A stretch of 64,000 nt of DNA from Candidatus Omnitrophota bacterium (GCA_903860135.1 CAIOPG010000016.1:2674-66673); one strand, 5' to 3'. Positions 1,902-54,091 are shown, numbered from the stretch's first letter. Notes: a model not told the origin generated them from the sequence alone. Made by a program: numbers and translations.

Positions 1902-2984
1902 ATGCTTGCCAGATCATTCAGTTTTGGGCTCAACGGACTTGACGCTTACCCGATCACCATTGAAGTGGATGTCGCCAAAGGCTTGCCCGCGTTCACCATT
2001 GTCGGTCTGCCAGACAGTGCCATCCGCGAAAGCAAGGAACGCGTCCGCTCGGCGATCAAGAACTCGCATTTCACGTTCCCGTCAGCGAGGATAACGATCA
2101 ACCTCGCGCCTGCGGATACGCCAAAGGAAGGCCCCTGCTTCGACCTGCCCATTGCGCTGGGTCTGCTGGCGGCCACAGAACAACTGCCGGTCGCAACCTT
2201 GTCCCGTTTCGCCTCGCTCGGTGAACTTTCCCTCACCGGCAAGATCCAGTCCGTTTCAGGTTGCCTTCCGGCCGCCATCGCCTCGACCTGCCAACGCGAA
2301 GAAACCCTCGAAGGGCTGCTTGTCCCCCAGGCCAATGCCGAGGAAGCCGCCCTGGCTGAACATGCCCGGATATTCCCTTTCCGAACCCTTGAAGCAGTCG
2401 TTTGTTTTCTCCACACCCCTGAAGGCATCGGGGCGTTCACGCCCACCCATGATGCCGCAACGCTCGAGGATATCCCGGCGGGGCTCAATTTTGCGGATGT
2501 CAAAGGGCAAAGCCTGGCCAAACGGGGACTTGAAATTGCCTCTGCCGGCGGGCACAATGTCCTGATGATCGGGCCTCCGGGCAGTGGCAAGACCATGCTG
2601 GCCAGAAGATTTCCCTCGATCCTGCCACCTATGACCCGCGCGGAAGCCCTTGAGATCACCAAGATCCACTCCATCACAGGCTATGCCCGCACCGAGCGGA
2701 TGCTCATTGCCCAGCGCCCTTTCCGCACCCCGCATCACAGCGCATCGATGGTCTCTTTAGTCGGCGGTGGTTCAGATCCCAAACCCGGGGAGGTCACCCT
2801 GGCGCACAATGGCGTTCTTTTCCTGGATGAATTACCAGAATTCGGCCGCAATGCCCTCGAAGCCCTGCGGCAACCCCTGGAAGACCGGTGCGTAACCATT
2901 GCGCGTGCCTCAAAAACCCTGCGTTTCCCGTCAAAGTTCACGCTCCTGGCCGCCATGAACCCCTGCCCGTGCATCACAATCTGA
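1902..2984 (+). pseudogene. comM: comM/yifB (Mg-chelatase-like AAA+ ATPase) 5' portion, interrupted after the MNPCPC motif by an insertion
   Basis: N-terminal YifB domain, Walker [11 protein letters not shown] and LFLDELPEF. The ORF ends ...[11 protein letters not shown], whereas ComM normally continues MNPCPCG. The missing C-terminus is found at 16759..17247. Confidence 0.85.
2955..2972. repeat. left junction repeat ATGAACCCCTGCCCGTGC (candidate attL core)
   Basis: An 18-bp copy of comM codons MNPCPC. A near-identical copy (16/18) sits at 16762..16779 at the other end of the AT-rich insert. Confidence 0.6.
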
Positions 2985-2998
2985 ATACTAAATTGTTA

Positions 2999-3712
2999 TC
3001 ATAATTCCCCTAAATCAGGGAAGCTCTCAACCTTTCTAGGCAAGCTTTCTAATAAACTTGCCACTGGAGAGGGTGAAAGATAATTGTATTTCTTTAGGAG
3101 ATATATCATCTCCATTAATGGTCCTAGTAAAGTCATCCCGCAGGTCAACTTTGAACTAGTGCTTGTAATCAGTTCACCTAGCAAGTCATTAAAATATAAA
3201 ACCTTCATATCTCCAAACAAATCAATCTTGCTGAATTCGCTGTGAGATATTTCCTTTTTACTGCTAAAAATAACAGTCTTAGAAAATACATCTTTCCTTT
3301 TTATTGCATAGAATAGAGCATGCGAGTGGGGAGGCTCACCTATTGTTTCATAAGTATAATCTGGACTATTGCGCAAGTCATCCCTCTGACAACAATCTAA
3401 ATACACATGATATTGCCCACCTTGATCAATGGCTAAAAGTTGATTATCGACACCAATCAATGCAGGCTCGCGATAAAGCTCATACGGTGCATTCTCAATA
3501 ATATGCTGCTCTCTTGTAAAACTAATCCATAATTTGATTAATTCACGATATGTTGATCCAAATATATCGTCGTAATTCATTTTCTTATCAATATTAATAC
3601 TGCTAAATTTATCGTGCTGCATATATACATTTCTTCTGCTGCTAGATTTCATAATTTTCCTTTCGTTAGAGTTCATACAGCTCAATATCAATATCATCCT
3701 TAGTTGAAACAT
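2999..3712 (-). CDS. hypothetical protein (element cargo, AT-rich)
   Basis: 237-aa ORF at the extreme left end of the insert. No recognisable motif. The real start may be the internal MKSSSRRN. Confidence 0.4.
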   Translation of the reverse strand: MFQLRMILILSCMNSNERKIMKSSSRRNVYMQHDKFSSINIDKKMNYDDIFGSTYRELIKLWISFTREQHIIENAPYELYREPALIGVDNQLLAIDQGGQYHVYLDCCQRDDLRNSPDYTYETIGEPPHSHALFYAIKRKDVFSKTVIFSSKKEISHSEFSKIDLFGDMKVLYFNDLLGELITSTSSKLTCGMTLLGPLMEMIYLLKKYNYLSPSPVASLLESLPRKVESFPDLGEL

Positions 3713-5141
3713 GAATCACTTTGACTAACTCGGTCAGAATCTCCCGCTGCGTTCGTGGTGTTAGCTTGAGAAAGGCTCCCTTCAAGTCCTTAACCCGGCG
3801 TAGCAAGGTTACACGCTTATCACGAGCCTTAGGATTAACATCAAGGATAAGTCGCTCCCTTAATGTCTGTAACTTCTCTAAGTCTTTGGCGATGTTATCC
3901 ATTCGCTCCACCAACAAGTCTTTAGAGATTGCTCCATCCTCAAACAGCTCGAGTAACTTCTTCTGCTTGCCCAGCATCTTGTTCAGATTTCTTTCCACTC
4001 CTTTCAACTCCTCTGCCGGTTTATCCTGCTTCAATCGTTCCAATACCTTCTCAGCATCGTGCTCATCAAAATGAAGGTTCGCATACTGCTGAATCTTTTC
4101 TAGAACGACCTTCTCCAAGTTCTGCTTATTGATAGAGACTCCTAAACATACATTTGGCCCTTTGCTTATGTGGTTATGACATCGGTAATAGCTAAAGGAT
4201 TTCCCGTTCTGCTTACTCGTACACTGACCACAAAGAGATCCGCCGCACTCAGTACACCGCATCAGACCTGATAGAAGATAAAACTCTCCTGAACGATGCT
4301 GTTTTATGTAGCGTCGTTGCTTTACTAGAGCCTGAACTCTCTCATACTGCTCCTCGGTGATAATCGGAGTGAAATCACCCTTCCTCACAGTCCATTTATC
4401 CTTAGGCAAGTAAACCTTTGAACCACCGGCTCGCTTCCCGTAGGTGTAGTACCCCATGTAAGGTGGGCTTGTCAGCACTCTTCTCACGGTTGTTGCCGCC
4501 CAAGTCTGTCCTCGCTTGGTTGTGTACGCCTTCTTATTCATCCAATGCGTCAGGCCCCTAAGCGTTCGGATTTCCTCAAACTTGGTGTACATTGCTCTTA
4601 CGACTTTAGCCTCAGCACCATTAATCACTAACCCCTTATCCTTAACGTCGTAGCCATATGGTGGCTGCCCTCCACAGAAATCACCACGATCTGCCTTGTG
4701 ATACATCGCATCTTTTACACGTTCAACTGTGATCGACCGCTCCCATTCGGCCAAACTACCCAAGATCGTCAACATCAACCTACCCGTGGGCGAAGTCGTG
4801 TCTAAATTTTCACTTAGCGATATAAAGCTAACGTCGTGCTTACTAAGAAGGTCTACGAAATCCAGCAAGTCCCTAACATTCCGCGCCACCCTGTCAAACT
4901 TGTAAACGACGACAGTCCCAACAGAACCATCCGCAATCCGTGCTAGAAGTTGGCTAAAAGCAGGCCTATTGATACTCGCGGCGGAGTAACCGTTATCAAC
5001 AAAGTGTTCTGCTCGAGTGAGGTTCTTTCTTGCTACTTCCTGCTCGAGCCACTCCTTCTGCCGAGGCACAGACAGCCCTTTATCACGTTGGATGTCTGTC
5101 GACACCCTAGAGTACAGAGCTGTGACCTTAGATGTCATCAC
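3666..5141 (-). CDS. large serine recombinase (candidate integrase of the element)
   Basis: N-terminal resolvase catalytic domain (LYSRVSTDIQRDKGLSVPRQ). Recombinase domain. Cys-rich zinc-ribbon segment (CTECGGSLCGQC...YYRCHNH). C-terminal coiled coil. 491 aa. Confidence 0.9.
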   Translation of the reverse strand: MMTSKVTALYSRVSTDIQRDKGLSVPRQKEWLEQEVARKNLTRAEHFVDNGYSAASINRPAFSQLLARIADGSVGTVVVYKFDRVARNVRDLLDFVDLLSKHDVSFISLSENLDTTSPTGRLMLTILGSLAEWERSITVERVKDAMYHKADRGDFCGGQPPYGYDVKDKGLVINGAEAKVVRAMYTKFEEIRTLRGLTHWMNKKAYTTKRGQTWAATTVRRVLTSPPYMGYYTYGKRAGGSKVYLPKDKWTVRKGDFTPIITEEQYERVQALVKQRRYIKQHRSGEFYLLSGLMRCTECGGSLCGQCTSKQNGKSFSYYRCHNHISKGPNVCLGVSINKQNLEKVVLEKIQQYANLHFDEHDAEKVLERLKQDKPAEELKGVERNLNKMLGKQKKLLELFEDGAISKDLLVERMDNIAKDLEKLQTLRERLILDVNPKARDKRVTLLRRVKDLKGAFLKLTPRTQREILTELVKVIHVSTKDDIDIELYEL

Positions 5142-5276
5142 ACATCAAGATTGCACGTAGAATCCTCGTTCGTCTTTCACGCCGCTCACTCTCATCAACT
5201 TTGACAGAATGAACCTTAACGATAATCCCGTGAACAATCTCCCTTCCTTCAGCTCTTTCTTTAAGTTCAATAGTCA
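5127..5276 (-). CDS. small 49-aa ORF overlapping the recombinase start (candidate recombination directionality factor or regulator)
   Basis: MTIELKERAEGREIVHGIIVKVHSVKVDESERRERRTRILRAILMCDDI. Basic C-terminus. Sits between the MCM-like gene and the recombinase. Below the 60-aa track cutoff. Coordinates approximate. Confidence 0.3.
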
Positions 5277-5280
5277 TAAA

Positions 5281-7368
5281 TCACACCTTATCAAGATTAA
5301 CGTCAACCTCATACTGCTGCTCCGTTGTGGGATTGCCACCATCTTCATCAAAGTACTGCTCGAAGAATTTGTTACCCTTAACAGTCTTGCGACATCCTTT
5401 GGCTGTTCGCACAATGAGCCCATGCTTGAAAAGAATCTCCATGCTGGCTCTTATTGGTTTATCACCAACGCTTAATGACTTCTCAAGCGTCTCTTGCTTA
5501 ACAAATTCATGTGATAAAACAGCCTTGAGAACCTGCATCATTGTTCCTTTATAATTTTCATCAACTTTCCTCGACTTAATATCGGCAGTAATGCGTTTAT
5601 AATCATCAAGGTCTAAATTTTCATTGATGTGCATCGCTGACACATACTTATCAAATCGGCAATTGTCATGATCGTAAACTTGTTGCAACTTCTTAACTAG
5701 AAACAGGACATGACCCTGCTTAACAACAATCTTTTCATGACTCTCATCGGTTGAATGCAACAACGCTGCAAGGCCTACCGACATCCTGGCCAATTTCTCA
5801 TGAATATCAGTCAGCACTAATGGGATTGTCGGATCTTCATACTTGTTGAGCATTAGATCTGATTGGCGCAGAATCTCGTTAGTAGCCTCCTTTTCGAATA
5901 CGACATCATTAATCCCCTTCCGCCACGCCCATAAAATACTTTGCTGAAGAAGCTTAGGCGTTATGGACTGATGAACTTTCTCACGTTCCTCATCCAACAT
6001 GAGAATGACCTTTCTAGGGACATCCCCCCGTCGGACACAAATAACGACATCTAATCGCCTAATATCCGCCGGTCGCTGATAATTAATAGCTGTTATCGGG
6101 TATTGAAAGTTATCCATTGGCTCTCCACTAACAGGATTCGCCAAGAATACATACCGAACTCTACATGGATGCTCAGCTTTAACTGACTTCGTGACAATCA
6201 TTACGCCACTTGATCTTGCGCTGCTAAATTCTTCCATCTCTTCGGACTTAAACTTCTGAGCTTCGTCGACAACTACAGCTTTCTTATCATTCAATGGCCC
6301 AACGCCCCATGTAATTATTCGCTGATTGTTTATCACAGTATCGAGGCTGTAACCTAATCCTGTTCGTGATGATGCACTTCCACTTGTCATTTGGCCAATA
6401 CCAATACCCCGAACAAGTCGCTCCACTAATGTTGATTTTCCCTGTGCAGTATCGCCCATCACCATCATTTCACCCCAACCCTTAGTCTTCGCTCCGTTAA
6501 ACTTAAACTGAAGCACGGTGTGAAAAGTAATCAGCACAAATAGCAGAATATTTACGCGGCACTCACCATAAATCTTGGTGATGTTCGCAGTAACGTCTTT
6601 AAGTGTTCTATTCACTGCGATTTCTATCAACTCTGGACTATCATGGACCGCTCGAAATTTCTTAAACTCTGACTTGATGCTATCCGTTGTTTCCTGTGCA
6701 TCAATATCTGTCCTAAGTGGTTCGACTGCTTGAACAAATAAAGTTGCAGCCTGTGTCTTGGGATGTGGTACAACTACGCCGGTAAGACGAAAATGCCCGT
6801 CAGTCTTTATCAAGTTCCCAGCTAGGTAAACAATCTTCTGTCTATAGTCCCGGCCCTTCTCATCAACTAATTCGCCATTATCCCCTTCATTAATAACCTG
6901 TGCCTGAGGTACTACAACCAGTTCTTGCACGGCTGTATACGCCACAAGCCGTATCGACAATCGGCAATCTTCACTAACTTGAGCCTGTAACGACTTCTTG
7001 ATAATCCGCTCCACCTGATCAGAATCTTTTCGACAGAGCGTCAGTATCGTTGGGTCTGTCGCTTCAAATCGAATAGATGAACCTTTTCGATAGCTACAAT
7101 TGCCACACGCGGATCTGTTCTTATCAACGAACGCACACTCCACTGCAAACTGCACCGGCACTTGAAAGCTTTCCACTGCGGCAGTAATCCTTACATCAAC
7201 CTGAACTCGTTTATTGACATACTCTGACTTCTCAATATCAGTCAAATGCACAGCAACTGGTGGAATGCTTTCGTCAATTTGTATAGCTCTACTCGGATGA
7301 GTACTACATTCAACAACCCTCTTCTTAGACATTAGGATTTCCCTTTCTTTTCTTTGGTTTAATCCCAA
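5281..7368 (-). CDS. MCM-like AAA+ ATPase / putative replicative helicase of the element
   Basis: Walker A MMVMGDTAQGKSTL resembles MCM GDPGxAKSQ. Walker B VVVDEAQKF. N-terminal CxxC pair (SACGNCSY). C-terminal winged-helix-like tail. 695 aa. Confidence 0.5.
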   Translation of the reverse strand: MGLNQRKEREILMSKKRVVECSTHPSRAIQIDESIPPVAVHLTDIEKSEYVNKRVQVDVRITAAVESFQVPVQFAVECAFVDKNRSACGNCSYRKGSSIRFEATDPTILTLCRKDSDQVERIIKKSLQAQVSEDCRLSIRLVAYTAVQELVVVPQAQVINEGDNGELVDEKGRDYRQKIVYLAGNLIKTDGHFRLTGVVVPHPKTQAATLFVQAVEPLRTDIDAQETTDSIKSEFKKFRAVHDSPELIEIAVNRTLKDVTANITKIYGECRVNILLFVLITFHTVLQFKFNGAKTKGWGEMMVMGDTAQGKSTLVERLVRGIGIGQMTSGSASSRTGLGYSLDTVINNQRIITWGVGPLNDKKAVVVDEAQKFKSEEMEEFSSARSSGVMIVTKSVKAEHPCRVRYVFLANPVSGEPMDNFQYPITAINYQRPADIRRLDVVICVRRGDVPRKVILMLDEEREKVHQSITPKLLQQSILWAWRKGINDVVFEKEATNEILRQSDLMLNKYEDPTIPLVLTDIHEKLARMSVGLAALLHSTDESHEKIVVKQGHVLFLVKKLQQVYDHDNCRFDKYVSAMHINENLDLDDYKRITADIKSRKVDENYKGTMMQVLKAVLSHEFVKQETLEKSLSVGDKPIRASMEILFKHGLIVRTAKGCRKTVKGNKFFEQYFDEDGGNPTTEQQYEVDVNLDKV

Positions 7369-7909
7369 ATGCCAACATAATTGCTTTTGAGAATCGTTCC
7401 CTTTTTTCAGGAGTGAGATTGCTCAACTCATTCATCGGATCATTAACAAAGAAATAATAATATGTTCCCCAATAAATCAAACACTGTTTAATACAGGTCA
7501 AACATGTGGCATTCTTTACATCCATCCTTAATTCCTTCTTACATTCACTGCACATCAAACTTGACCGAATCACAAGTTGGGTTTTTACGCATTTATTACA
7601 CAGCCAGACACCTTTTTGCTGTATTAAATCTTTCCTACTAAAAAGTTTCGTCTCAGAATCCTCAAGATTGATGTTCAGTGTATTTATTCTCATAGCAACT
7701 GCTCGATTAGTTAGACAATCTGACCCACACTTAAGACACTGACAACGCTTTACATAGAGATTGCTGTTACCCTTAACTGAAAGATTACACAATTTCCCCA
7801 TAAGCGTTTGATCATCATCAATAATATGTGTGTTACTAACTTCCTTCATAAACTCAGAGTCCACAACTCTTCCCATATCACCATGTCTACTTCGTATTTC
7901 TATTACCAT
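7325..7909 (-). CDS. Cys-rich (multi CxxC) zinc-finger-like protein
   Basis: CQCLKCGSDC, CNKC, CSECKK, CLTCIKQC. No homology recognised. Confidence 0.45.
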   Translation of the reverse strand: MVIEIRSRHGDMGRVVDSEFMKEVSNTHIIDDDQTLMGKLCNLSVKGNSNLYVKRCQCLKCGSDCLTNRAVAMRINTLNINLEDSETKLFSRKDLIQQKGVWLCNKCVKTQLVIRSSLMCSECKKELRMDVKNATCLTCIKQCLIYWGTYYYFFVNDPMNELSNLTPEKRERFSKAIMLAFGIKPKKRKGNPNV

Positions 7910-7963
7910 TTCTCCTCCTAATTGTTACCGTTCTTCTATTCATTATTTCTATAAACTTAATTC

Positions 7964-8326
7964 TCAACCATGTACCATTTCGAATTGCAATGCTTTACGT
8001 TTCTTGGCATTGAAATACTCAGCAAATTCAACATTCAATCTCAATGCACGTTTCATTTGGCATACACAACCACTGCCATCACATACATCAGGTTTAAGCT
8101 GACACTCCAAACAGGCCACCTTATCCATATGCTTTACGAACTGTTCAATGCACGCCCTACATATCCAGGATCTCTTGGGGTAACCTTTAATAGATATTCC
8201 TTCCACAAGTTCTTCAATGTCATTACACAAACAACAAATATCACCAGCTCCAGCGTACTTTCGTCTCTTGCCATACAAATTAAAGAATTCATCGACTGTT
8301 ATTGGCTTTCTAACTGATTTATTCAT
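7964..8326 (-). CDS. Cys-rich zinc-finger-like small protein
   Basis: CCLCND, CRAC, CLEC, CDGSGCVC. Confidence 0.45.
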   Translation of the reverse strand: MNKSVRKPITVDEFFNLYGKRRKYAGAGDICCLCNDIEELVEGISIKGYPKRSWICRACIEQFVKHMDKVACLECQLKPDVCDGSGCVCQMKRALRLNVEFAEYFNAKKRKALQFEMVHG

Positions 8327-8652
8327 ATTCCCCTCTTTCCTTTGCCCACTGTTCTTATATCCATACTCATATTTAATCCGTCATCTCTTGTCAGAAGTAA
8401 GCTAACACTCGATCTAAGCCCGGCCAAAGAAGCAAACGCCTCTAATCTCTCACTAATTTCAACTATCTCTTTTGCAGCAGCACAGTCACTTCGTTGCCGT
8501 AGGTTACATTTGCCATACAACCCCTCAAAAGTTAACCTTCCACTGCTACCTGAACAATAACAATGGTCACATTTAAAACCCATTAGCGAACCTTGACCTT
8601 GCCCATCCTTAACTACTAGCCCATCTACCTTCCTGCTCATATTGCTCTTCAT
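8323..8652 (-). CDS. Cys-containing small protein
   Basis: CDHCYCSGSSG ... CNLRQRSDC. Start overlaps the upstream gene by 4 nt (coupled). Confidence 0.4.
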   Translation of the reverse strand: MKSNMSRKVDGLVVKDGQGQGSLMGFKCDHCYCSGSSGRLTFEGLYGKCNLRQRSDCAAAKEIVEISERLEAFASLAGLRSSVSLLLTRDDGLNMSMDIRTVGKGKRGI

Positions 8653-8701
8653 ACACGTTCCTTTCTTTATTCCACACTGTGGAATGTTCGGTTAAAAAAT
8701 T

Positions 8702-9259
8702 TTACTGGGCGATCAACTCGGACATCTTGTTAAAATATTCTTTAAAATCCAACACTCTCTTGCGAAAATCAGACCATATTTCAGCCTGCTTCTTCCGAAG
8801 CTCCAAAAATTCTTTCTTAGCTTGTTTCTTGGAATTAGAGTCAAATTTATCTTTAGAGAACTCAAATTCACCTGTAGGCCCCATCATCCATGACATAAGC
8901 TGTAAATTAAGGTTAATAATATCTTCTCCCTCCTCCTCATCCAGATCGAACTCAACCTGTGCAAAATTAAATATCTTAACCTCCAGATCACAAAATTCCT
9001 TTAACTCAGATAATGGGATGTGTGCCGTACGAAGTAACAGAATCATTCTAAAGAATTCAACTTCTGCGGATGTATAACTACTCTTTGCCCCGTGCGCACC
9101 ACTTGCCCCGGTTGCCAGTTTCCTGCGAGAAGATGAACGCCGCAAATTTAAAGCATCTTCCATCTTCCAAAGCCAAGCACTGGAAACTCCAACTCTTTGG
9201 CAAACTTCTTGTCCTGTGAAATCATTATCTTCTTTTGACATGAGCAAAGTATTCCACAC
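8702..9259 (-). CDS. helix-turn-helix (MerR/excisionase-like) DNA-binding protein
   Basis: N-terminal FTGQEVCQRVGVSSAWLWKMED resembles MerR-type/AlpA HTH. Acidic coiled-coil C-terminus. Immediately downstream of the second recombinase. Confidence 0.5.
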   Translation of the reverse strand: MWNTLLMSKEDNDFTGQEVCQRVGVSSAWLWKMEDALNLRRSSSRRKLATGASGAHGAKSSYTSAEVEFFRMILLLRTAHIPLSELKEFCDLEVKIFNFAQVEFDLDEEEGEDIINLNLQLMSWMMGPTGEFEFSKDKFDSNSKKQAKKEFLELRKKQAEIWSDFRKRVLDFKEYFNKMSELIAQ

Positions 9260-9282
9260 TGGGGAATAAAAGTCAAGGAAAA

Positions 9283-10155
9283 TTATTTTGCTCTATGTCC
9301 AACAAGATTATTTTCAGACACGTGAGGTATCGCGTGTCTAGCCACAATACACCTCTGAACCTTATCGAATACTTTCTCGTCGATAATCTTTTCAACTGCG
9401 CCGGGCTTCTCGATACAATCGCCACCCCATCCTCTAGCCTTAACCTTTCTAAATCCCCATCGGGCTGCACCCTTATAAACCGGGTTGGTCAGAATTCTCT
9501 GTACCTTTTTGCTCGAAAATAATTTTCCGTATGAACTTTTTACGCCTACCTTATTTAGCACCGTTGCCACAGCCGTCATGTTCTTGCGCTTAAGAAATTC
9601 TCGAAAGATCTGCTCCACTATCGGCTTAGTATTGTCATCAATAATCAGACGCTTGCCTTCCACTTTATAGCCAAGTGGTGGCCGCCCTCCCAAAAACTGC
9701 CCGGTCAAAGATGCCATTGCATTCCTACATCTAATACCTCCAGAGGTGGCCTCATACTCACCAAACACGCCCAAGACTGAGAACAGCACCCTTCCTCCCG
9801 GGCTCTTGGTATCAATCAGCTCAACGACTGACTCGAGGCCAACACCACAGCGGCGAAACTCATAGTCCAAATTCAGCAGATCCCTAACATTGCGAGAAAT
9901 TCGATCGAACCGCCAAGTCAGCACAACATTAAAGTCTGCCTTCTCCTTCATATCTTGAAGCAACTGCGCCAAAGCCGGGCGACGTATAGGCGGAAGCGTA
10001 CCAGAATAAGCCTCATCAGTATAAACCCGGACCAACGTTCCACCTTGGGCTGTGATGTAAGCCTCACACCGAGCTCTCATCGCCGATAAACTACAACCAT
10101 CCTCTACCTGAGAATTGCTACTTACACGCAGATAAACTACGAAAGCCTTGCTCAC
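9283..10155 (-). CDS. serine recombinase (resolvase/invertase-size) second recombinase
   Basis: VVYLRVSSNSQ catalytic serine region. DRISRNVRDLL motif shared with the large recombinase (DRVARNVRDLL). 290 aa. Confidence 0.85.
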   Translation of the reverse strand: MSKAFVVYLRVSSNSQVEDGCSLSAMRARCEAYITAQGGTLVRVYTDEAYSGTLPPIRRPALAQLLQDMKEKADFNVVLTWRFDRISRNVRDLLNLDYEFRRCGVGLESVVELIDTKSPGGRVLFSVLGVFGEYEATSGGIRCRNAMASLTGQFLGGRPPLGYKVEGKRLIIDDNTKPIVEQIFREFLKRKNMTAVATVLNKVGVKSSYGKLFSSKKVQRILTNPVYKGAARWGFRKVKARGWGGDCIEKPGAVEKIIDEKVFDKVQRCIVARHAIPHVSENNLVGHRAK

Positions 10156-10306
10156 TTTACCCTCCCTTGTTCGCCATCCAACTCGTAAGCGTTCTCTAAT
10201 TTATAATCTTCAACCCTGATAGTCCCGCAACGGCATCGAAATGTGATCTCGATGCACTCATCGCCATGATTGCGTTTCAACTCCATCCATGCGTGATGAC
10301 AGTTCT

Positions 10307-10879
10307 TCACTTTCCCCACTGCTCCTTGTCCAGTCGCTCACCCTCAAGGTACAGGTCATGAGCCAAGACATACAGCTCAGGATATGAGAGCTCGATCTTA
10401 GCCTGCCTAACCATCCGCGCACAGACTCGCACCGCCACCAACTCACCCTTGCACGTAAATACTGGGTCAAGGGTCGGAACCTTACAAAAATAGGCCTGCA
10501 AATCCTTCATCTGTCGCCAAGGCTTAGCCTTAAACATGGCCTCACCTCTGTACTCCTTTATCAAATTCCATTTCAGAGGACTGTTCGTGTAAAAATCACC
10601 CCATTGAACTTCCTTACACTCTTTCAGATCTCGACACACAATCCTCTCAAAATTAGGAGGAAGAATTAAACCACTACTCCCTAAGATTTTACTAATCCTT
10701 GCCAGCTCCTGCCTCAGCCAAGCTCGGAAATCTTCAACCGAGGTACCGGGTGGAGAATCCTTGGCATACCATATTTCATCAGTACTCATCACACCTCCAT
10801 ATATATTCCTATAAAGCAGAAATCCCTCTTTCCGTGGCATTTCTCCACGTCCAGAGGGCACAAAGGGAATCGAGGGCAA
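10307..10879 (-). CDS. hypothetical protein
   Basis: 190-aa ORF with no recognisable motif. Probable start at MSTDEIWYAKD. Confidence 0.4.
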   Translation of the reverse strand: MPSIPFVPSGRGEMPRKEGFLLYRNIYGGVMSTDEIWYAKDSPPGTSVEDFRAWLRQELARISKILGSSGLILPPNFERIVCRDLKECKEVQWGDFYTNSPLKWNLIKEYRGEAMFKAKPWRQMKDLQAYFCKVPTLDPVFTCKGELVAVRVCARMVRQAKIELSYPELYVLAHDLYLEGERLDKEQWGK

Positions 10880-11403
10880 CCCTCGAGAACATATCTATAT
10901 CCCAATAAAATTAAAACACAGAGAAAGCTCAGACACAATATTGAAACTGAGTAAATATTTTAGAGAGATATAAAACCATTAACAAAACACTCACTCTTTA
11001 AACAGGAAAGTACTAAGGGTTAATTAAAACCACTTAACCCTGCTTAAAATATTTCTAAACGATTTTAGATAGAAGAGAAATACTTTAAAAATTAAGAAGA
11101 ATATTTTAAAGTTGGTTGCTTTACAGAACTAGTACAGGTATGCCGGGAAGAACTTCCCTCTGTACCCTTTGCTCCCTTGAAAGAGCTGAGAACTCTTTCA
11201 ACAAGTTAATTATGATTAATTATTATGGGCAACCTACTATAACCATTTACCTATACTGAGAACGCTTGTCTACTCCTAAGCATCCAATAAAAAGAAAGTG
11301 CCATATACTATCGAGTAAGTAGTAAAAGAATAATGACGATCCAGAAATATAAGGCATTAAATTCTGTCTTTACCTGTTGAGATACTCGGACGGAGAAATG
11401 CTA
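10880..11403. other. 524-bp AT-rich non-coding region with a hairpin and short reiterated motifs (candidate origin or regulatory region of the element)
   Basis: No ORF. Hairpin GGGTTAAttaaaaccacTTAACCC at ~11017-11040. Repeated TTTTAGAGAGATA / TTTTAGATAGAAGAGA / AATATTTT motifs. Confidence 0.4.
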
Positions 11404-11964
11404 CTAGTTTAACCGCTTGTAAACAGCCAACCAATCATTAGCAATAACACTTTGTGCTGCACGGAGCTCCATCTGTCCAGAGCAGACCTGTTCGTGTAGG
11501 TAATTCTCAACCTTATCTTTCTCGTGGAATCCCGGCCTAGGCTCCGCTGGTTCAGGCCAGAGATTAGCAATGTCATTGGACCCACCGAGTTCTAACGGCA
11601 CCAAGTGATCTACTTCATACTCACCTTTAACACGATGCTCGACGCCATACTCAGCATAAACATCACGCTTCAATGCTACTGTAACATTTCTCATGGTCTT
11701 GGTGTAACCCGACACACAAATCTCGGCCACCGTTGCCTGTTCAAACACTGCACCGGGTGTGCAGGCCTTGTCCGGCAGTGATCCCTGCTTTACACAGTTA
11801 AAGTCTTTAGTCCTAGCACCAATAGTTGGCGTTGATTGAACAGTCTGCTGGACCTGCTGAGGTTGCGGTGTCTGTTTGTACTGCTCAGAGATAATCCAAG
11901 CAACAAGAATTAGCAACAGGAAGAATGCTGCGATCACTAAAAGGTTTCTGGCGTTAGTGTTCAA
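11404..11964 (-). CDS. membrane-anchored HNH endonuclease family protein
   Basis: N-terminal TM helix LLVIAAFFLLLILVAWI. HNH signature YEVDHLVPLELGGSNDIANLWPE. Confidence 0.65.
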   Translation of the reverse strand: MNTNARNLLVIAAFFLLLILVAWIISEQYKQTPQPQQVQQTVQSTPTIGARTKDFNCVKQGSLPDKACTPGAVFEQATVAEICVSGYTKTMRNVTVALKRDVYAEYGVEHRVKGEYEVDHLVPLELGGSNDIANLWPEPAEPRPGFHEKDKVENYLHEQVCSGQMELRAAQSVIANDWLAVYKRLN

Positions 11965-12173
11965 CCCGCATCCTCCTGATCGACCAGACCCTTCTTGGTA
12001 AAAATCTGCTTTCCATCTTCACTGTACTCGATCTCAGCGTCATCTGGGGTTAAAATTACCAGAGCAACACCCGGATCTTTGGAAAGGATCTCCACCCTAC
12101 CATCCTCATGAAACTTTATGACAACTTTCTTCGGCTTCTCTTTTTCCATAATTTCCCCAAGGTTTACAGACAA
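11961..12173 (-). CDS. small hypothetical protein translationally coupled to the HNH gene
   Basis: 4-nt overlap with the HNH start. Probable start MEKEKPKKVVIKFHEDG. Acidic C-terminus. Confidence 0.35.
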   Translation of the reverse strand: MSVNLGEIMEKEKPKKVVIKFHEDGRVEILSKDPGVALVILTPDDAEIEYSEDGKQIFTKKGLVDQEDAG

Positions 12174-12251
12174 TTATGAACAATAGTGAACATTTAACGA
12201 CTTCTATGTACCCAAAGTCGTAGAATAAGTAAACTTTCTTCCGATTTACTC

Positions 12252-12280
12252 TTGACAAGATAATGGTTTAGTATACTATA
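12252..12280 (+). promoter_or_regulatory. sigma70-like promoter for ORF 12303
   Basis: TTGACA ... TATACT/TACTAT, followed by GGAGGAAATT-ATG. Confidence 0.35.
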
Positions 12281-12302
12281 TGAAGTAAGAACGGAGGAAA
12301 TT

Positions 12303-12698
12303 ATGAGTGAAAGAACTGTTAATCCAGTATTGTTTACAAAGCCTAGATCAAAACTATCGTCAAAGACATTGACCATGAGCCCTAAAGGCGGGTTCATGTT
12401 CTCCTCCGGTGCCTGCCATGAGTGGGATCTGCTCAAGTATAAGTTCTGCATTCTTGGTTACGATCCTGTAGAAAAAGCAGTGTGTTTCCAGTTCGTAGAC
12501 TTAGCTGACTACGTTGGTGCAATAAAACTCACCATTCGTAAAGCTGGCAACCTATCCCTTCAATCAGGAGCCTTCTTTGCCTTCAACAGATTAGACCCAA
12601 AAGAACTCGCGGGCCGGTACAGCATTGTTAAGCAGGATCTCCCTGAAAAAGGCACATGGTTTGTTGCCTTCCTAGACTCTAACCACTCTAAAAAGTAA
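12303..12698 (+). CDS. hypothetical protein
   Basis: 131 aa with a strong RBS. Only plus-strand gene in this part of the element besides the putative endonuclease. Confidence 0.45.
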   Translation: MSERTVNPVLFTKPRSKLSSKTLTMSPKGGFMFSSGACHEWDLLKYKFCILGYDPVEKAVCFQFVDLADYVGAIKLTIRKAGNLSLQSGAFFAFNRLDPKELAGRYSIVKQDLPEKGTWFVAFLDSNHSKK

Positions 12699-12709
12699 AA
12701 AACATGGCA

Positions 12710-12776
12710 AACATTTACATTGATGGGCGCACCACAAGAAGAACTCCAGAATCTTCTTGTGCCAACTGTAAATGTT
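12710..12776. promoter_or_regulatory. nested inverted repeats between ORF 12303 and the putative endonuclease gene
   Basis: Outer arms AACATTTACA / TGTAAATGTT. Inner arms CACAAGAAGA / TCTTCTTGTG. No downstream T-run, so more likely an operator or attenuator than an intrinsic terminator. Confidence 0.35.
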
Positions 12777-12954
12777 GGGGGAGCCTCCAAAGCTCTCCCA
12801 GCCATGTTTTTATGTTATGAGTATACATCAAGCTAATCTATGACGCAAGGTTGACCTTATTTTTCATCCCCTGTCCTTCTAACCATGCTTAAATATCTTC
12901 GTTACATTATTTGTATATTCGGTATTATACTATTATAAAAATTGTTACCAATAA

Positions 12955-15003
12955 ATGACATCAACTACTAATCCTCAACAAATAATCAACCTATCAATTC
13001 ACGGTGATAATATCGTTGAGTGCGAACGCGCTTGGGCATTAATCAAAGATGCGTTCAATTGCCACTCAAGCACACCTTCAATTATCCCCGATTCAATTAT
13101 TGCCCCTAACTTTGAAGCATCCTCTCAAGAATATAATATTCAACTTCGTGCAGTATTTCTCCCTGGGTTTAACCGATGGAGTCCAGATATTCTAGCCCAT
13201 ATTAAGAATCGCGGCGCTATGTTACGTGAGGCTGCCGATGCTATTATTTGCCTAAATCTAACATCTAAAGATAATCAACCCATTCAAATCCCGTTGTTAG
13301 CAATCGAATTCTGTGGAGCCTTAGCTGCAGGGAATCAAGCTTGGCAACGCTGCGGTCGAGCATTAGCTTTTTCGGCAGCTAAGATTCCTTATATTTATTT
13401 AGCAGAACTAGGCGGATTTGAGTTAGATGAAGATAGAAATATAAAAGCTGTACGATTGCCTAACCCATTAATCCCATTTGCTTATCTAACATTATCATTC
13501 CAATCCGATACATTCGCATTACCCGTTTTCATTCCAAATGCGGCAGCAGATAAAACAGCCTTGACCAACTTTCATAATTGTTTTGGTTTACCTAATTTGC
13601 TCGAGCTAATTCGCCACGCTATCTTAAACACAAACCCATCCTCCTCAGCCAATGCTTTAACAGCTAAAACACTCGCACTCGTTAATATTCTATCGGACAA
13701 TCGAAAGCAAAAAGTTAAGAATACCTTTACTCCTCCACTATGGGAAGAATGGCTTAAAACAATCCATAATGATCAGACTGCTGCTACTTACATTGCACAA
13801 CAAGCACTTAGTTGGGGAAAAACAGCATATATAGCCGGACTAACTCAAACCACAAAGAATGTTATCAACTCCGCGCCGAAATATGCGATTGGCGCCGGAG
13901 CATCTCAAGTCCCAATCTGTGTAGTTCCCGCAAGCCAACGCGTCAATTTTGCTAACTTTATCATCACGCAATATCCAAAGTTAACACCTCAATTTCGTAA
14001 TTGGCTTAAAGAAGACCGGCCTCTTGGTATTTGCTGGGTAATGGGATTCAAACCTCGAGGGGATGACGCTCGACCTGATCGTGGACTTCCCCCTCTAGCT
14101 CGTATGATATTTGGACCCAAGACTGATCTCTTAACATTTGTCTATGGACCTGCCAAACCATTCTCCTGGCCCTTATTGCACAATAAACCACAACAATTAG
14201 CTAATCAAAATGGGCTTTGGGAAGCAATCTTAGCAATGAGCGATGCAATATTGGTAGACAGCATTACGGATAAAAATATTACAGATAAAGGCTACCTTCG
14301 CAGCCACTGGCATAAGGCTCAATCACCAATACCTCCATCTCCACTCCCGGTTAGTGTTATCACTCCAACATCACTCGGAGAGAATGATGTTGACACCGTA
14401 ATACACCTCCTAATGACTTCCAATAAAGAAATAGTATTCGAAGGTATGTGCAACCCGCCCGGCGGAGATTGGAGTGGTATTTCAATTAAGGATAGTGCTA
14501 ATAATGTAACTCTGGAGAAGCGTTGGCTTTCCCTGCCAAGGGTTAGCGCACAACAACACAAAAGACCAGACCATGTCTTTCAAATATTCTTTCCGAATAA
14601 GCTTCCGATTATTCTCTCAGTTGAATCTAAGGAGAAATCATCTGACGTCGAGCCAAATATCGGCGAAAGACTTTCTGGCTACATTCAACAGCTTATGAAA
14701 GTTCCATCCTCCGTAGAACGAGAGTTCCCCAAAGGAGCTTGGAAGGTATCAGTCGATAAAATTGATCTAAAGAAATTTAGATTCGCATCAGCTGTGGCAT
14801 TCTTATCAGATAGTAATAATGAATTAGAAATTGCCAAAAAGAAATCTCAAGCAGATTTGATAATTGGAATAACGATATCAGCTAACGGAAAAGATGCGGA
14901 ATTGAAACTGCTTGCAGGATCACCTATTGGAACAGAATTGCTCACATCAATTCATTCCTTAACAAAAATATCAAGACTACCTATAAAAGCCTCAATAATT
15001 TAA
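12955..15003 (+). CDS. large uncharacterised protein, candidate restriction endonuclease of a two-methyltransferase R-M module
   Basis: 682 aa. Convergent with, and 12 nt overlapping, the Dam-family methyltransferase gene. C-terminal half has a PD...ESK arrangement (RPDHVFQIF...ILSVESKEK) compatible with a PD-(D/E)xK nuclease. No methyltransferase motifs. Confidence 0.45.
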   Translation: MTSTTNPQQIINLSIHGDNIVECERAWALIKDAFNCHSSTPSIIPDSIIAPNFEASSQEYNIQLRAVFLPGFNRWSPDILAHIKNRGAMLREAADAIICLNLTSKDNQPIQIPLLAIEFCGALAAGNQAWQRCGRALAFSAAKIPYIYLAELGGFELDEDRNIKAVRLPNPLIPFAYLTLSFQSDTFALPVFIPNAAADKTALTNFHNCFGLPNLLELIRHAILNTNPSSSANALTAKTLALVNILSDNRKQKVKNTFTPPLWEEWLKTIHNDQTAATYIAQQALSWGKTAYIAGLTQTTKNVINSAPKYAIGAGASQVPICVVPASQRVNFANFIITQYPKLTPQFRNWLKEDRPLGICWVMGFKPRGDDARPDRGLPPLARMIFGPKTDLLTFVYGPAKPFSWPLLHNKPQQLANQNGLWEAILAMSDAILVDSITDKNITDKGYLRSHWHKAQSPIPPSPLPVSVITPTSLGENDVDTVIHLLMTSNKEIVFEGMCNPPGGDWSGISIKDSANNVTLEKRWLSLPRVSAQQHKRPDHVFQIFFPNKLPIILSVESKEKSSDVEPNIGERLSGYIQQLMKVPSSVEREFPKGAWKVSVDKIDLKKFRFASAVAFLSDSNNELEIAKKKSQADLIIGITISANGKDAELKLLAGSPIGTELLTSIHSLTKISRLPIKASII

Positions 15004-15810
15004 ATACAAAGACTCCTCCACCATATTCTTCGTCTTATCTATTACTTTTCTGAAACTCGAATAACCTGAGCGCAAAAGAAAATGCCTCTTATATAATGAT
15101 TTCGGAATTTCTACAGAATAATCTTTCTCCGTACTCTTCCCATCGAACGACAATGCGTATTTTATCTTCTTCTTATTTAAACGATTCAATTCATCAAGAA
15201 ACTCACTAAAATTAATTGTGCCATAATATCGCCCCTTTGTATAAAAATATGGCGGATCTAAATATACAAAATCTCCAGTTTCAACTCTCGCCAAAGTCTT
15301 TCTATAATCACCGACACAAAAGTCAACTGGCTTCACAACCTCTTGCCACTCTACTAGAATTCCCGCCAATCTTTCAGGCTGGATGCCTCTTCTTGTATGA
15401 TGTAATGAATTGTTAAACTCCCCATTCTTATTAAATCTAATAAGCCCATTCACGCATGTCCTAGAAAGAAAGAAGAGATCATATGGACTATGTGTTTCAT
15501 TAAACCGATTACGAACATCATAAAAGACTAAATGACCGTCGGCCTTCAATCTATTCCACTCCTTCTGATAATAAGTCAACAAACTATCTGGAGAATCTTG
15601 AACGACTTTCCATAAATCAATAAGCGGCTTACAAATATCACTGCAAACAGCAATCTTAGGTCGAAGATATGAAATTATAGATCCCCCACCAATAAATGGC
15701 TCGTAATAGCACCCTAAATCCTGAGGGAACTTACTCACTATCTCTTTAGCTTGACTTCGTTTACTACCTGTCCATTTAATGATTGGCATCAATGAATTTC
15801 CAAGTCTCAT
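14992..15810 (-). CDS. Dam-family (alpha-class) N6-adenine DNA methyltransferase, DpnM-like
   Basis: IIKWTGSKR (the KWAGGK-type motif of the Dam family). Motif I EPFIGGGS precedes motif IV TGDFVYLDPPY. Confidence 0.85.
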   Translation of the reverse strand: MRLGNSLMPIIKWTGSKRSQAKEIVSKFPQDLGCYYEPFIGGGSIISYLRPKIAVCSDICKPLIDLWKVVQDSPDSLLTYYQKEWNRLKADGHLVFYDVRNRFNETHSPYDLFFLSRTCVNGLIRFNKNGEFNNSLHHTRRGIQPERLAGILVEWQEVVKPVDFCVGDYRKTLARVETGDFVYLDPPYFYTKGRYYGTINFSEFLDELNRLNKKKIKYALSFDGKSTEKDYSVEIPKSLYKRHFLLRSGYSSFRKVIDKTKNMVEESLYLNY

Positions 15811-16640
15811 CGTGATTCATCCCCTTTTACAAAAAGGTCAGGCTCGGTAAATTCAACCCTTTCTTTCGCGAGTTTAATATATTCCTCACTTATTTCAAAT
15901 GCAATATATCGACGATCCAACATTTTTGCGGCTACACATTCTGTTCCAGACCCACAAAATGGAATCAAACAAACATCTCCCGGCTTACTCGCAATAGAAA
16001 TAATTCTATCTGCTATTCTAATAGGCTTCTGAGTTGGATGAGAACCATACTTCCGTTCAACTTTCGTCTTATTATTGGGAATATCCCAGACGGTTCTCAT
16101 CTGCTTCCCCTTCTTCTTCAACAAGTCTTCAGCAAAATCACCATTCTTAGTATACGGATAATTAAAGAAATACTTTCGCTTCCCTTTACCATAATGGCCC
16201 CATAACAACGTTTCATGACTTGCAGTCAAACGCCGCCCTGACAAATTGGGGAATGAATTCCTTTTATACCAAACAACCTCATTAATAATTTCAATTCCTA
16301 GAAGTTGAAATACGAAGTTTATAACTCCAATATTATGATATGTTCCATATACCCAAATAGAGCCTGTAGGCTTCAACAATCGCTTTGCTTCAGTCAACCA
16401 AGCTAGAGTGAAATTAAAATATTCACTTAGCCCCATACAGTCCCAATCTTCCATCACTTTATTCCAAACGCCACCCATGCCCTTCAACTCAACACTTTTA
16501 TCCCATCCCCACTTATTGCCTTTCGACAAATTATATGGTGGATCAGCAATAATTAAGTCGATTGAGGAATCTGGCAAGGCCTTCATCCCGTCGACACAAT
16601 CCTGATGTATTATTGAATTTAGAGATTTTTCTATCTGCAT
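15807..16640 (-). CDS. beta-class N6A/N4C DNA methyltransferase, DpnA-like
   Basis: DLIIADPPYN near the N-terminus and SHPTQKP...IPFCGSGTECVAAKMLDRRYIAFEISEEY near the C-terminus (D12-class order, collinear with DpnA). ATGA overlap with the Dam-family gene. Confidence 0.85.
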   Translation of the reverse strand: MQIEKSLNSIIHQDCVDGMKALPDSSIDLIIADPPYNLSKGNKWGWDKSVELKGMGGVWNKVMEDWDCMGLSEYFNFTLAWLTEAKRLLKPTGSIWVYGTYHNIGVINFVFQLLGIEIINEVVWYKRNSFPNLSGRRLTASHETLLWGHYGKGKRKYFFNYPYTKNGDFAEDLLKKKGKQMRTVWDIPNNKTKVERKYGSHPTQKPIRIADRIISIASKPGDVCLIPFCGSGTECVAAKMLDRRYIAFEISEEYIKLAKERVEFTEPDLFVKGDESR

Positions 16641-16758
16641 ATTTTAATTTATCCCACATTGTAATAACATAAACTACTCAAGACAAGGTATTTAGCATTT
16701 TCGCAATATTAACATTTCATTATAACAACCCAACCTCCACAACAACGGTTTTAATTTC

Positions 16759-17247
16759 GTGATGAATCCCTGCCCATGCGGCCACCTGGGCGACCGCAAC
16801 AAAGCCTGCCGCTGCAGCAGCGCGCAGATCCAGCGCTACCAGATAAAGATCTCGGGCCCCTTGCTTGACCGCATCGATATTCATCTGGATGTCCCGGCCC
16901 TCAAGACTGATGACCTGTTGAATGCGCCTTCGGGCGAATCGTCCGAAACGATCCGGGCGCGTGTCCTGACAGCGCGTGAACGCCAGCTGGAACGTTTTAA
17001 AGGCGAGGACGTTTTTGCCAACACCCAGATGTCACACCGCCACATCCGCAAACACTGTGCCCTGGATAAAGCCGCGCAAAAACTGCTGAAAGATGCGGTA
17101 GAAACCCTAGGGATCTCGGCCCGCGCCCACGACAAGATCCTGCGCCTGGCCCGCACGATCGCCGACATCGACGGGGCTGACACGATCAACACAGGACATC
17201 TCTCTGAAGCTATCGGGTACAGGACGCTGGACAGGACAAGCACATGA
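16759..17247 (+). pseudogene. comM: comM/yifB 3' portion (C-terminal domain) separated from its 5' part by the insertion
   Basis: MNPCPCGHLGD...LLDRIDIHLDV... matches the ComM/YifB C-terminus. Continues exactly where 1902..2984 breaks off. Confidence 0.85.
16762..16779. repeat. right junction repeat ATGAATCCCTGCCCATGC (candidate attR core)
   Basis: Second copy of the MNPCPC-coding 18-mer, 2 mismatches to the left copy. The comM reading frame resumes here. Confidence 0.6.
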
Positions 17248-20462: not shown

Positions 20463-20882
20463 CTATACCACCGTTGCAACCCTTAATACCCGTGCCGCCG
20501 CAAGAAGTGCCTTGTCATACGTAAATAGCGGCACGCCCATTTCTATCGCCAAAGAAAGATAGGCCGCGTCATAAATGGTCAACTTATGTTCTTTGGCCAG
20601 ATCAAACGCGGCAAGGCTATCGATAAAATAATTGCGCGGATTTCTTATAACAACATGATAATGCCGTATGACATCAAAAATGGCCTGCTGTGTTTCCAGC
20701 GCTAGCCTGCCTCTGCGGAAAGAATTCAACACAATATTGAGCATTTCATATTCAAATATCACCGGAGCGAACAAGTGGAACTGATGCATGTTCTTAATCA
20801 CATGCTGATACGCTGAAGAATCTTCATCCGACAAAAACCATGATGCCGCCACACTAGCATCTATGACCGCTTCACTTTTCAT
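20463..20882 (-). CDS. vapC: PIN-domain toxin (VapC-like)
   Basis: VIDASVAASWF N-terminus and conserved PIN Asp positions. Paired with the upstream small antitoxin gene. Confidence 0.8.
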   Translation of the reverse strand: MKSEAVIDASVAASWFLSDEDSSAYQHVIKNMHQFHLFAPVIFEYEMLNIVLNSFRRGRLALETQQAIFDVIRHYHVVIRNPRNYFIDSLAAFDLAKEHKLTIYDAAYLSLAIEMGVPLFTYDKALLAAARVLRVATVV

Positions 20883-20885
20883 GCG

Positions 20886-54000: not shown

Positions 54001-54091
54001 ATTTTTCCCTAAGAAAGAATTCAGATTTCAACCTACAATTCTTAAATATTTAGTATAACAGAAAAACACTTTTTGCCCCTATAAAAAGCAG

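Follow-up and report, generated by a model that had tools for sequence, protein, structure and literature searches.

The comM (yifB) gene of a Candidatus Omnitrophota bacterium was found in two pieces within a 64-kb stretch of DNA (GCA_903860135.1 CAIOPG010000016.1:2674-66673; the whole of this stretch is hereafter called the window, and positions are counted from its first letter). The break lies at the codons for MNPCPC. The DNA between the two pieces is a foreign island, real and precisely bounded, that interrupts comM and carries a gene for a large serine recombinase (LSR). We consider it very probable that this small island entered comM by LSR-mediated recombination between an attP site on the element and an attB site in the gene. 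Three lines of evidence are presented for this account: the structure and composition of the split locus, an unoccupied site in a near-identical genome, and the repeated presence of related LSRs at the same comM codons.

A foreign island divides comM

The 5' part of comM (1902..2972, + strand), which is host-derived up to the crossover, matches the Pfam families ChlI and Mg_chelatase, the latter over profile positions 2-161 of 207. The open reading frame (ORF) to which it belongs runs from 1902 to 2984 (360 amino acids (aa)); past the crossover it consists of three element-encoded codons (ITI) and a stop codon. The 3' part (16762..17247, + strand), host-derived from the crossover on, lies within an ORF (16759..17247) that opens (V)MNPCPCGHLGD and matches Mg_chelatase positions 156-206 together with the whole of Mg_chelatase_C. 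Given profile coverage of positions 2-161 and 156-206, the halves therefore overlap by exactly six duplicated codons. ComM is cut inside its AAA+ module, and its function has presumably been lost.

An imperfect 18-bp direct repeat was identified at the junctions. The left copy, designated the attL core, reads ATGAACCCCTGCCCGTGC (2955..2972, + strand), and the right copy, the attR core, reads ATGAATCCCTGCCCATGC (16762..16779, + strand). The two copies differ at two bases and are the only two matches to the repeat pattern in the window when three mismatches are allowed; there is no third att-like copy, which might have indicated tandem elements and explained an ORF that stands between the LSR gene and attL (see below). 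A search for long terminal repeats of the island found none.

The 13,805 bp between the comM halves have a GC content of 0.415, compared with 0.516 in the rest of the window. Host segments of 13.8 kb range from 0.489 to 0.538, with none lower. Tetranucleotide frequencies correlate with those of the host at 0.21 for the island and at 0.93-0.97 for chunks of host DNA. The same arrangement is present in the Logan contig ERR4195066_62828 (22,017 bp, run ERR4195066), a separate assembly that is 100% identical to window positions 2451-24467. Because this separately assembled contig spans both junctions, the arrangement is not an artefact of one assembly pipeline.

A preliminary description of the locus, made from the sequence alone, had placed the comM split at MNPCPC, had described the intervening DNA as AT-richer than its flanks and had delimited it by the imperfect repeat at 2955-2972 and 16762-16779. 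These points are upheld by the ORFs and profile coverage of both halves, by the GC content and tetranucleotide (k-mer) comparison with the flanks, which marks the island as foreign on both measures, and by the repeat search. The same description had named misassembly of the two halves as a result that would overturn it; the independent contig, identical across both junctions, speaks to that concern.

An unoccupied site defines attB and confines the crossover

The comM halves were joined in silico at MNPCPC and the product was used as a protein-database query. This recovered P0068, an intact 512-aa ComM matching the join at 100% identity with 100% coverage. The contig encoding it, L087, derives from a different run (SRR26280456) and keeps the host synteny, with genes for an ACCA carboxyltransferase, LysM-YkuD and DUF212 upstream of comM and the start of an ORF6N gene downstream. 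L087 aligns with the window over positions 1-2968 at 98.4% identity and over 16762-17507 at 98.1%, the two alignments overlapping by 14 bp in L087. This contig is an unoccupied attB in a near-identical genome, and supplies the uninterrupted comM that the preliminary description had suggested seeking in a relative. When genome contigs were scanned with rejoined ComM, only intact ComMs of 48-55% identity were returned, with no close relative and no split copy; 80 intact ComMs align over residues 1-509. An exact attB pattern gave 0 matches in metagenome contigs; this pattern was too strict, the real empty site differing from it at TGT GGG.

Comparison of the occupied and empty sites allowed the crossover to be narrowed. 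The attB reads GCCGCC ATGAACCCCTGCCCATGT GGGCAC. At positions 6 and 15 of the repeat, attL has C and G, attR has T and A, and attB has C and A, for which the simplest reading is an exchange between positions 6 and 15. Taken together, the three sites restrict the crossover to the 8 bp CCCTGCCC (2961-2968 and 16768-16775). The attP was reconstructed as ...TTTCGTGATGAATCCC-TG-CCCGTGCATCACAATC..., that is, a central TG flanked on its left, reading outwards by blocks, by AATCCC, GTGATG and TTTC, and on its right by CCCGTG, CATCAC and AATC. The reconstructed spanning sequences are TTTCGTGATGAATCCCTGCCCGTGCATCACAATCTG for attP and GCCGCCATGAACCCCTGCCCATGCGGCCACCTG for attB. The reconstructed attP contains a perfect 6-bp inverted repeat, GTGATG/CATCAC, symmetric about TG; in attB the corresponding symmetry, GCC/GGC at comparable spacing, is weaker. 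On the strength of this symmetry in attP and attB we propose TG (2964-2965 and 16771-16772), which is probably the crossover dinucleotide.

In the mechanism proposed here, the LSR encoded at 3666..5141 would have recombined a short element attP with the host attB, namely the codons for AMNPCPCG of comM. Strand exchange would have taken place within CCCTGCCC, most likely at TG, forming attL and attR. The product would be a 13.8-kb site-specific integrative island in the chromosome of the Omnitrophota bacterium, whose recognisable cargo modules are a putative replication-maintenance pair, comprising a helicase and a short recombinase, and a type IIS restriction-modification system; about eight further ORFs have no assigned function.

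The island encodes a large serine recombinase

The putative integrase is a 491-aa protein (3666..5141, - strand) recognised by Pfam, PHROG, PDB and alignment evidence. Its Pfam matches are to Resolvase (8.8e-39, residues 8-154), Recombinase (7e-23) and Zn_ribbon_recom (5e-12). Against PHROGs it matched the integrase family phrog_95 (8e-123), and in the PDB the integrases of TP901-1, SPbeta, A118 and phiC31; the PDB match includes the recombinase and zinc-ribbon domains of the A118 integrase, and the SPbeta integrase. In an 18-sequence alignment of the LSR family, residues R12, S14, Q18, R84 and R87 are invariant, and the zinc-ribbon cysteines C296, C299 and C321 are nearly so. A heptad-like segment at approximately residues 380-450 was judged by eye to be the coiled coil. 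The protein is thus a complete LSR, with all three domains present, and about 700 bp separate its stop codon from the left junction, the distance given in the preliminary description. It is the best candidate integrase, and presumably it, rather than a second, 290-aa recombinase encoded by the island, catalysed the integration.

Assignment of the LSR to named families of serine recombinases was attempted and rejected. The match to XisF (NF041201) scored 173.6 bits against an equivalog cut-off of 375, and those to CcrA/B/C fell below the NCBIfam equivalog cut-offs (CcrB 201/900, CcrC 180/900). Phage integrases in GenBank share at most 33% identity with the LSR. In a scan of IMG/VR viral contigs with the LSR alignment, the best relative likewise reached 33%; among these loci 0/80 have a ComM fragment within 3 kb, a count that is uninformative since viral contigs have probably been trimmed of host DNA.

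Related recombinases occupy the same comM codons

The protein database contains about 17 LSR relatives at 37-58% identity, some of them labelled Omnitrophota. The genomic context of six relatives (34-56% identity) was read, and all six abut a comM half cut at the NPCPCG codons. In four of these loci the LSR is convergent with a comM 5' half, which ends AMNPCPF in L003 (LSR identity 56%) and AMNPCPC in L004/L005 (48%), L006 (48%) and L088 (47%). In the remaining two the LSR is co-directional with a comM 3' half, starting ..ACPCG.. in L089-L091 (45%) and lying at ..GCPCG.., in frame from the LSR, in L002 (34%). The host synteny of the window (DUF212, LysM-YkuD, ACCA) is common to L003, L004 and L006; the neighbours in L088 differ, and L002 originates from a high-GC organism.

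The 15 island ORFs were compared by tblastn with L002, L003, L004 and L006, covering the roughly 10 kb read beside each LSR. Matches were made by the two recombinases only, at the recombinase genes, and no other cargo gene was shared over this distance. Since no cargo is shared, the integrase and its target form the conserved unit, and the cargo is interchangeable.

The orientation of the LSR to comM was seen to vary. It converges with the 5' half in the window as in L003, L004, L006 and L088, and runs co-directionally into the 3' half in L089-L091 (11400-11700) and L002 (11300-12042), the gene call in L002 being a 669-aa in-frame LSR::ComM-C fusion. To judge from these arrangements, the variation implies that the attP core would be inverted relative to the integrase gene in some LSR lineages.

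Nucleotide conservation along comM was assessed in a codon alignment of 71 diverse intact comM genes obtained from the genome-contig scan. The 24-nt segment centred on the crossover ranks 6/1512 for conservation, and the maximum lies within 5 nt of it; the LSR site is thus where the gene's DNA is best conserved. The same comM codons serve LSR lineages as distant as 34% identity and in both orientations, and we attribute this recurrent capture by unrelated elements and distant LSR lineages to the target comprising the most conserved nucleotides of the gene.

A helicase and a short recombinase suggest a replication module

The 15 island ORFs were scanned for known families, with Pfam covering 15/15, PHROGs 10/15 and NCBIfam 9/15. 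Beyond the LSR, two products point to replication or maintenance functions. The first is an MCM-like AAA+ helicase of 683 aa (5281..7332, - strand; 695 aa from a TTG at 7368), recognised by Pfam (MCM, 3e-8) and by PHROG (phrog_18685, 4e-80, over profile positions 452-1015 of 1028). It shares 28-31% identity with the 'MCM domain family protein' of Bacillus phage phBC6A51 and related primase-helicases, and its relatives include the BcMCM-type primase-helicases of Bacillus and Microbacterium phages. Homologues in the database are 830-1040 aa long and have archaeo-eukaryotic primase (AEP) or Toprim primase N-termini, whereas the island helicase has no N-terminal primase domain. A tblastn search of the island found no primase remnant, and the Cys-rich ORFs described below are not a decayed primase. 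The protein is accordingly of BcMCM type and corresponds to the helicase half only.

The second is a short serine recombinase of 290 aa (9283..10155, - strand), with Pfam Resolvase and Recombinase domains. It has neither zinc ribbon nor coiled coil and stops precisely at the end of the recombinase domain, at the point where a zinc ribbon would start. Its catalytic R, S, Q and R residues are conserved in the alignment. The nearest representatives among 1.8 billion proteins are 281-303 aa in length, and as these are equally short, the 290-aa protein is a real short form and not a pseudogene. A CcrC assignment was rejected (131 against a cut-off of 900).

A comparable gene pair was found on L092, a metagenome contig of 13.4 kb on which an HTH_17 gene and a tyrosine integrase gene are also present. 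There (4748-9367), a 293-aa serine recombinase without a zinc ribbon, 46% identical to the 290-aa protein, is encoded about 0.7 kb upstream of an AEP-MCM gene whose product is 45% identical to the helicase, with one small ORF between them. Helicase and short recombinase thus appear, from their gene neighbourhoods, to form a portable module that combines with different integrases, and the short recombinase would act within a replication or maintenance module, for example in multimer resolution, and not as an integrase. We tentatively suggest, as a possibility well short of an even chance, that short recombinase and BcMCM-type helicase form the core of an undescribed family of small integrative replicons, plasmid- or satellite-like, in which the integration module is exchanged. 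With the same reservation, that module would be the comM-targeting LSR in the island, and the tyrosine integrase with an excisionase-like HTH_17 protein in L092. If this were true, the short recombinase would serve replication-linked resolution rather than integration.

The cargo includes a type IIS restriction-modification system

At the right-hand end of the island a 682-aa protein (12955..15003, + strand) was assigned to the BsmI family of type IIS restriction endonucleases by its PDB match to BsmI (9ezd; E=1e-96, residues 14-658) and by PADLOC (REase_II PDLC03434, 7e-131). It is followed by two genes on the opposite strand. One encodes a 272-aa DNA adenine methyltransferase of the D12/Dam class (14992..15810, - strand) with matches to Pfam MethyltransfD12 (8e-35), to TIGR00571 dam above cut-off, and to positions 357-626 of the fused 626-aa PADLOC model MTase_II PDLC03302. 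The other encodes a 277-aa N6/N4 DNA methyltransferase (15807..16640, - strand) that matches Pfam N6_N4_Mtase (1e-51) and positions 5-262 of PDLC03302 (1e-118). On these family matches, the three proteins constitute a BsmI-like type IIS restriction-modification system with a methyltransferase for each DNA strand, as would be expected of a system whose site is asymmetric. The system may serve defence, addiction or both. The BsmI site GAATGC is not depleted in island or host.

The density of GATC was also recorded. Host DNA (1-2965 and 16771-64000) contains 500 sites in 50.2 kb, or about 1 per 100 bp, which is 2.6x the expectation from base composition and 1.31x that of an order-2 Markov model. 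The island (2966-16770) contains 47 sites in 13.8 kb, 0.84x the order-2 expectation, despite its Dam-class methyltransferase.

The remaining ORFs, three Cys-rich and four others, have no recognised family. The Cys-rich group lies directly beyond the helicase gene and comprises ORFs of 194 aa (7325..7909, - strand; 12 Cys, four CxxC), 120 aa (7964..8326, - strand; 10 Cys, three CxxC) and 109 aa (8323..8652, - strand; 5 Cys). The first two have no significant match in Pfam, PHROG or PADLOC and the third none in Pfam or PHROG; a PADLOC match of the 194-aa ORF (E=0.0037) is at chance level, and PADLOC otherwise finds the restriction-modification genes alone. Four further ORFs were called as genes in L001. 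An ORF of 217 aa (2999..3652, - strand; 237 aa from the furthest start) lies between the LSR gene and attL, and one of 179 aa (8702..9241, - strand; 185 aa from the furthest start) precedes the short recombinase gene in window coordinates; a third, of 160 aa (10307..10789, - strand; 190 aa from the furthest start), follows it. None of these three has a match in Pfam, PHROG, NCBIfam or PADLOC. The fourth, of 131 aa (12303..12698, + strand), has none in Pfam or NCBIfam. An AlphaFold2 single-sequence model of the 237-aa form gave a predicted local distance difference test (pLDDT) score of 36 and was unusable. The 217-237-aa ORF may encode a directionality factor, or else an accessory protein whose gene was inserted here. 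The 179-aa ORF, whose N-terminus looks helix-turn-helix-like by eye, is at most a candidate regulator or directionality factor.

A 186-aa ORF (11404..11964, - strand) is hydrophobic in an N-terminal segment and contains EVDHLVPLELGGSNDIANLWP, by eye a possible HNH motif; it matches the HNH endonuclease family phrog_6050 at E=0.008 only, and no nuclease in Pfam or the PDB. Adjacent to it is an AT-rich intergenic region of about 520 bp (10880..11403, unstranded; GC ~0.36) with several short direct and inverted repeats of the AAATATTTTA type, a candidate origin or regulatory region of the island. Nothing convincing was found in the way of tandem repeats or iterons, counts in a promoter and terminator scan were at chance level, and Rfam and ARAGORN returned no non-coding RNA or tRNA in the island.

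Among the gene labels of the preliminary description, the MCM-like helicase proves to be the helicase part of a BcMCM-type phage primase-helicase, the second recombinase is real by its domains and conserved catalytic residues, and the two-methyltransferase restriction-modification module can be specified as a BsmI-family type IIS system. The HNH nuclease label was not sustained, given the marginal PHROG match and by-eye motif behind it.

Certain gene classes were absent from these scans. No capsid, terminase, tail or lysis family was found by Pfam, PHROGs or NCBIfam at the coverage given above, no relaxase or type IV coupling or secretion family by Pfam or NCBIfam, and no transposase family, including the TnsA/B/C and TniA/B/C types, in any island ORF. 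Nor was a packaging gene recognised in the island, though integrase and helicase are present.

Three features of the flanking host DNA may be recorded here. The ORF6N/KilA-N-type gene immediately downstream (17244-17867, + strand) overlaps the comM stop codon (ATGA) and is phage-like in appearance; since the empty-site contig L087 (5045-5308) contains its start, it is part of the host backbone. Genes for a PhdYeFM antitoxin and a PIN toxin form a pair at approximately 20463-21128 (- strand; L093 gene table, 3340-4005). Finally, a low-GC patch (0.39-0.45) at 53489-54659 contains two small overlapping ORFs of 86 and 101 aa, by eye a DUF4160/DUF2442-like pair, along with a 131-aa ORF similar, on visual inspection, to the N-terminal portion of a YhcG-type nuclease; this patch may be another small foreign insert.

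Alternative explanations

The island might instead be a decayed prophage or a satellite of the phage-inducible chromosomal island (PICI) type, transferred by a helper phage. The LSR and the BcMCM-type helicase would then be remnants, or a parasite, of a temperate phage that has comM as its integration site. This account overlaps that of LSR-mediated integration, and we regard it as rather unlikely though worth serious thought. Its helicase belongs to a family typical of phages (phBC6A51, Microbacterium phages and a phage-like replication module in L094), the best PHROG match of the LSR is a phage integrase family, the related locus L004 carries a Phage_CP76 gene, and known phages use the same comM site. 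Moreover, a size of 13.8 kb and a layout of integrase, replication gene and small ORFs resemble those of satellites. The PHROG matches among the 10 ORFs scanned are, however, limited to the two recombinases, the helicase and the weak HNH hit; the ORF scans recognised no capsid, terminase, tail, lysis or packaging-hijack gene and no repressor; and the IMG/VR viral contigs hold no LSR relative closer than 33%. Domestication offers a different view, in which the island would be an excision element under host regulation, like skin/sigK, fdxN/XisF or the Listeria comK phage, that restores comM under particular conditions. Precise joining does restore an intact ComM whose protein sequence bears no scar, the LSR has its sub-threshold match to XisF, and competence genes are recurrent LSR targets (PMC10083194). 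That match nevertheless falls short of the equivalog cut-off (173.6 bits against 375), the element is polymorphic, being absent from a 98%-identical genome, and the unrelated cargo of its relatives at the same site fits selfish elements and not a fixed developmental switch. We also know of nothing reported on competence in Omnitrophota, which counts further against such a switch, and we hold it to be very unlikely.

Two other explanations have next to nothing left to recommend them. The AbaR/AbGRI Tn7-like islands of Acinetobacter classically insert in comM, as do other mobile elements (PMC11472951), and the island might accordingly be an AbaR-type, Tn7-like transposon, or owe its position to a tyrosine recombinase, with the serine recombinases as mere cargo. 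Among ORFs of at least 80 aa, however, there is no TnsA/B/C-like, DDE transposase or tyrosine-recombinase gene; the junctions have a short core of attP/attB type, and terminal inverted repeats with a 5-bp duplication are absent; and six LSR relatives stand at the same junction with different cargo. This origin is scarcely credible. An assembly or binning artefact that joined foreign DNA to two comM fragments might be suspected from the source, a metagenome-assembled genome, and from an island composition so sharply unlike the flanks. It is contradicted by the separately assembled 22-kb contig that is 100% identical across both junctions, by the same architecture in six other assemblies and by a break exactly at a known LSR target (PMC10083194), and its probability is negligible.

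Several observations nonetheless weigh against integration by the LSR as we have set it out, or against parts of it. An ORF of about 650 bp separates the LSR gene from attL, whereas in the relatives read at the junction the LSR stop codon lies some 10-70 bp from the crossover; the attP arm on the LSR side may have undergone rearrangement. Nor was a recombination directionality factor identified. The crossover interval is set by two third-codon-position polymorphisms, and parsimony support for it is only moderate because two of the six bases that follow are different in the empty-site strain; the assignment of TG is based on a 6-bp symmetry. Autonomous replication is doubtful since the helicase lacks the primase found in nearly all homologues. 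The circular excised form proposed as a check in the preliminary description was looked for among assembled contigs by way of attP: exact attP patterns gave 0 matches in viral contigs and 0 in metagenome contigs, and no excised circle was found. Present-day mobility and autonomous replication are accordingly held with lower confidence than the integration mechanism, although the island may be able to excise and replicate.

Comparison with known elements

Homologues annotated as Mg-chelatase/ATP-dependent protease are the most frequent target of site-specific LSRs, accounting for 12.4% of those predicted, with competence genes over-represented among the targets of LSRs (Durrant et al. 2022, PMC10083194). 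We take this annotation to denote the ComM/YifB family. Wolbachia sr1WO prophages integrate by means of an LSR into a magnesium chelatase gene (Bordenstein and Bordenstein 2022, PMC9203015). It is likewise well known that Tn7-like AbaR islands and defence islands insert in comM, and loss of ComM has been proposed to shield mobile elements from curing by transformation (PMC11472951). The preliminary description had regarded a serine recombinase in comM as out of the ordinary; in view of these reports and of an Acetoanaerobium phage record discussed below, that opinion has to be abandoned. A serine integrase at comM is the rule, not the exception, and the island is a further example of a known element type. 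We know of no such element described from Omnitrophota as the host phylum, nor of any from the present LSR clade. The earlier statement that the element could not be matched to a described family holds in part: as a whole it fits no named family, yet its helicase/short-recombinase pair recurs in one other element.

The island leaves the understanding of how such elements work unchanged. What it provides is a cleanly delimited element with defined attB, attL and attR, a reconstructed attP and a complete LSR, and the LSR/att pair is raw material for integration vectors. To our knowledge, Omnitrophota have almost no characterised mobile elements or genetic tools.

The island agrees with the elements of Durrant et al. 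(PMC10083194) in the class of its integrase, in the family of its target gene and in breaking a competence-related gene from within, and also in the convergence of distant LSRs on one conserved site while cargo varies. The likeness is drawn at the level of the gene family, and the host phylum and LSR clade differ. With sr1WO (PMC9203015) the island shares LSR-mediated entry into a host Mg-chelatase gene whose halves flank the element, and boundaries likewise set by alignment to an intact copy in a relative. sr1WO is, however, a complete tailed prophage of tens of kb from an alphaproteobacterial endosymbiont, whereas the island has no structural genes, and the two are likened at the level of the gene.

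A parallel in position is the Acetoanaerobium phage ANDSL2_ph1 (PP197248.1), in which a 546-aa LSR is convergent with an Mg_chelatase fragment covering profile positions 1-161. That fragment ends AAMNPCPCV*, the same truncation point and geometry as the attL of the island, although ANDSL2_ph1 infects a Firmicute, is 36 kb in size and carries lysis genes. The 186-aa fragment is internal (L096, 2656-4816) to a "complete genome" record obtained from culture supernatant; it is either a piece of comM carried by the phage itself beside attP, or host DNA included in the record.

Gene content invites comparison with two further systems. The AAA+ region of BcMCM from the Bacillus cereus prophage phBC6A51 is homologous to the island helicase (31% identity over 75% of the query), but BcMCM possesses an N-terminal AEP primase-polymerase that the island protein lacks, and the rest of the island encodes no primase either. 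Homology of the endonuclease to that of the BsmI system, a type IIS system with an asymmetric site and two methyltransferase activities, extends over the full length of the protein, and the island's two methyltransferases match the two halves of one fused MTase_II model.

Finally, the island may be set beside elements that disrupt genes in a similar manner. The AbaR/AbGRI islands of Acinetobacter baumannii interrupt the same gene in its Mg-chelatase domain with loss of ComM function, and defence and accessory cargo is common in them (PMC11472951). They move by Tn7-type transposition, whereas the island, devoid of Tns genes, would have moved by site-specific recombination through a serine recombinase. 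Listeria A118/phi10403S (in comK), SPbeta and skin resemble it in that an LSR acts within a competence or developmental gene that precise excision would restore, and the 491-aa LSR matches the A118 and SPbeta integrases in the PDB. The target gene differs from theirs, and the island is polymorphic in its population.

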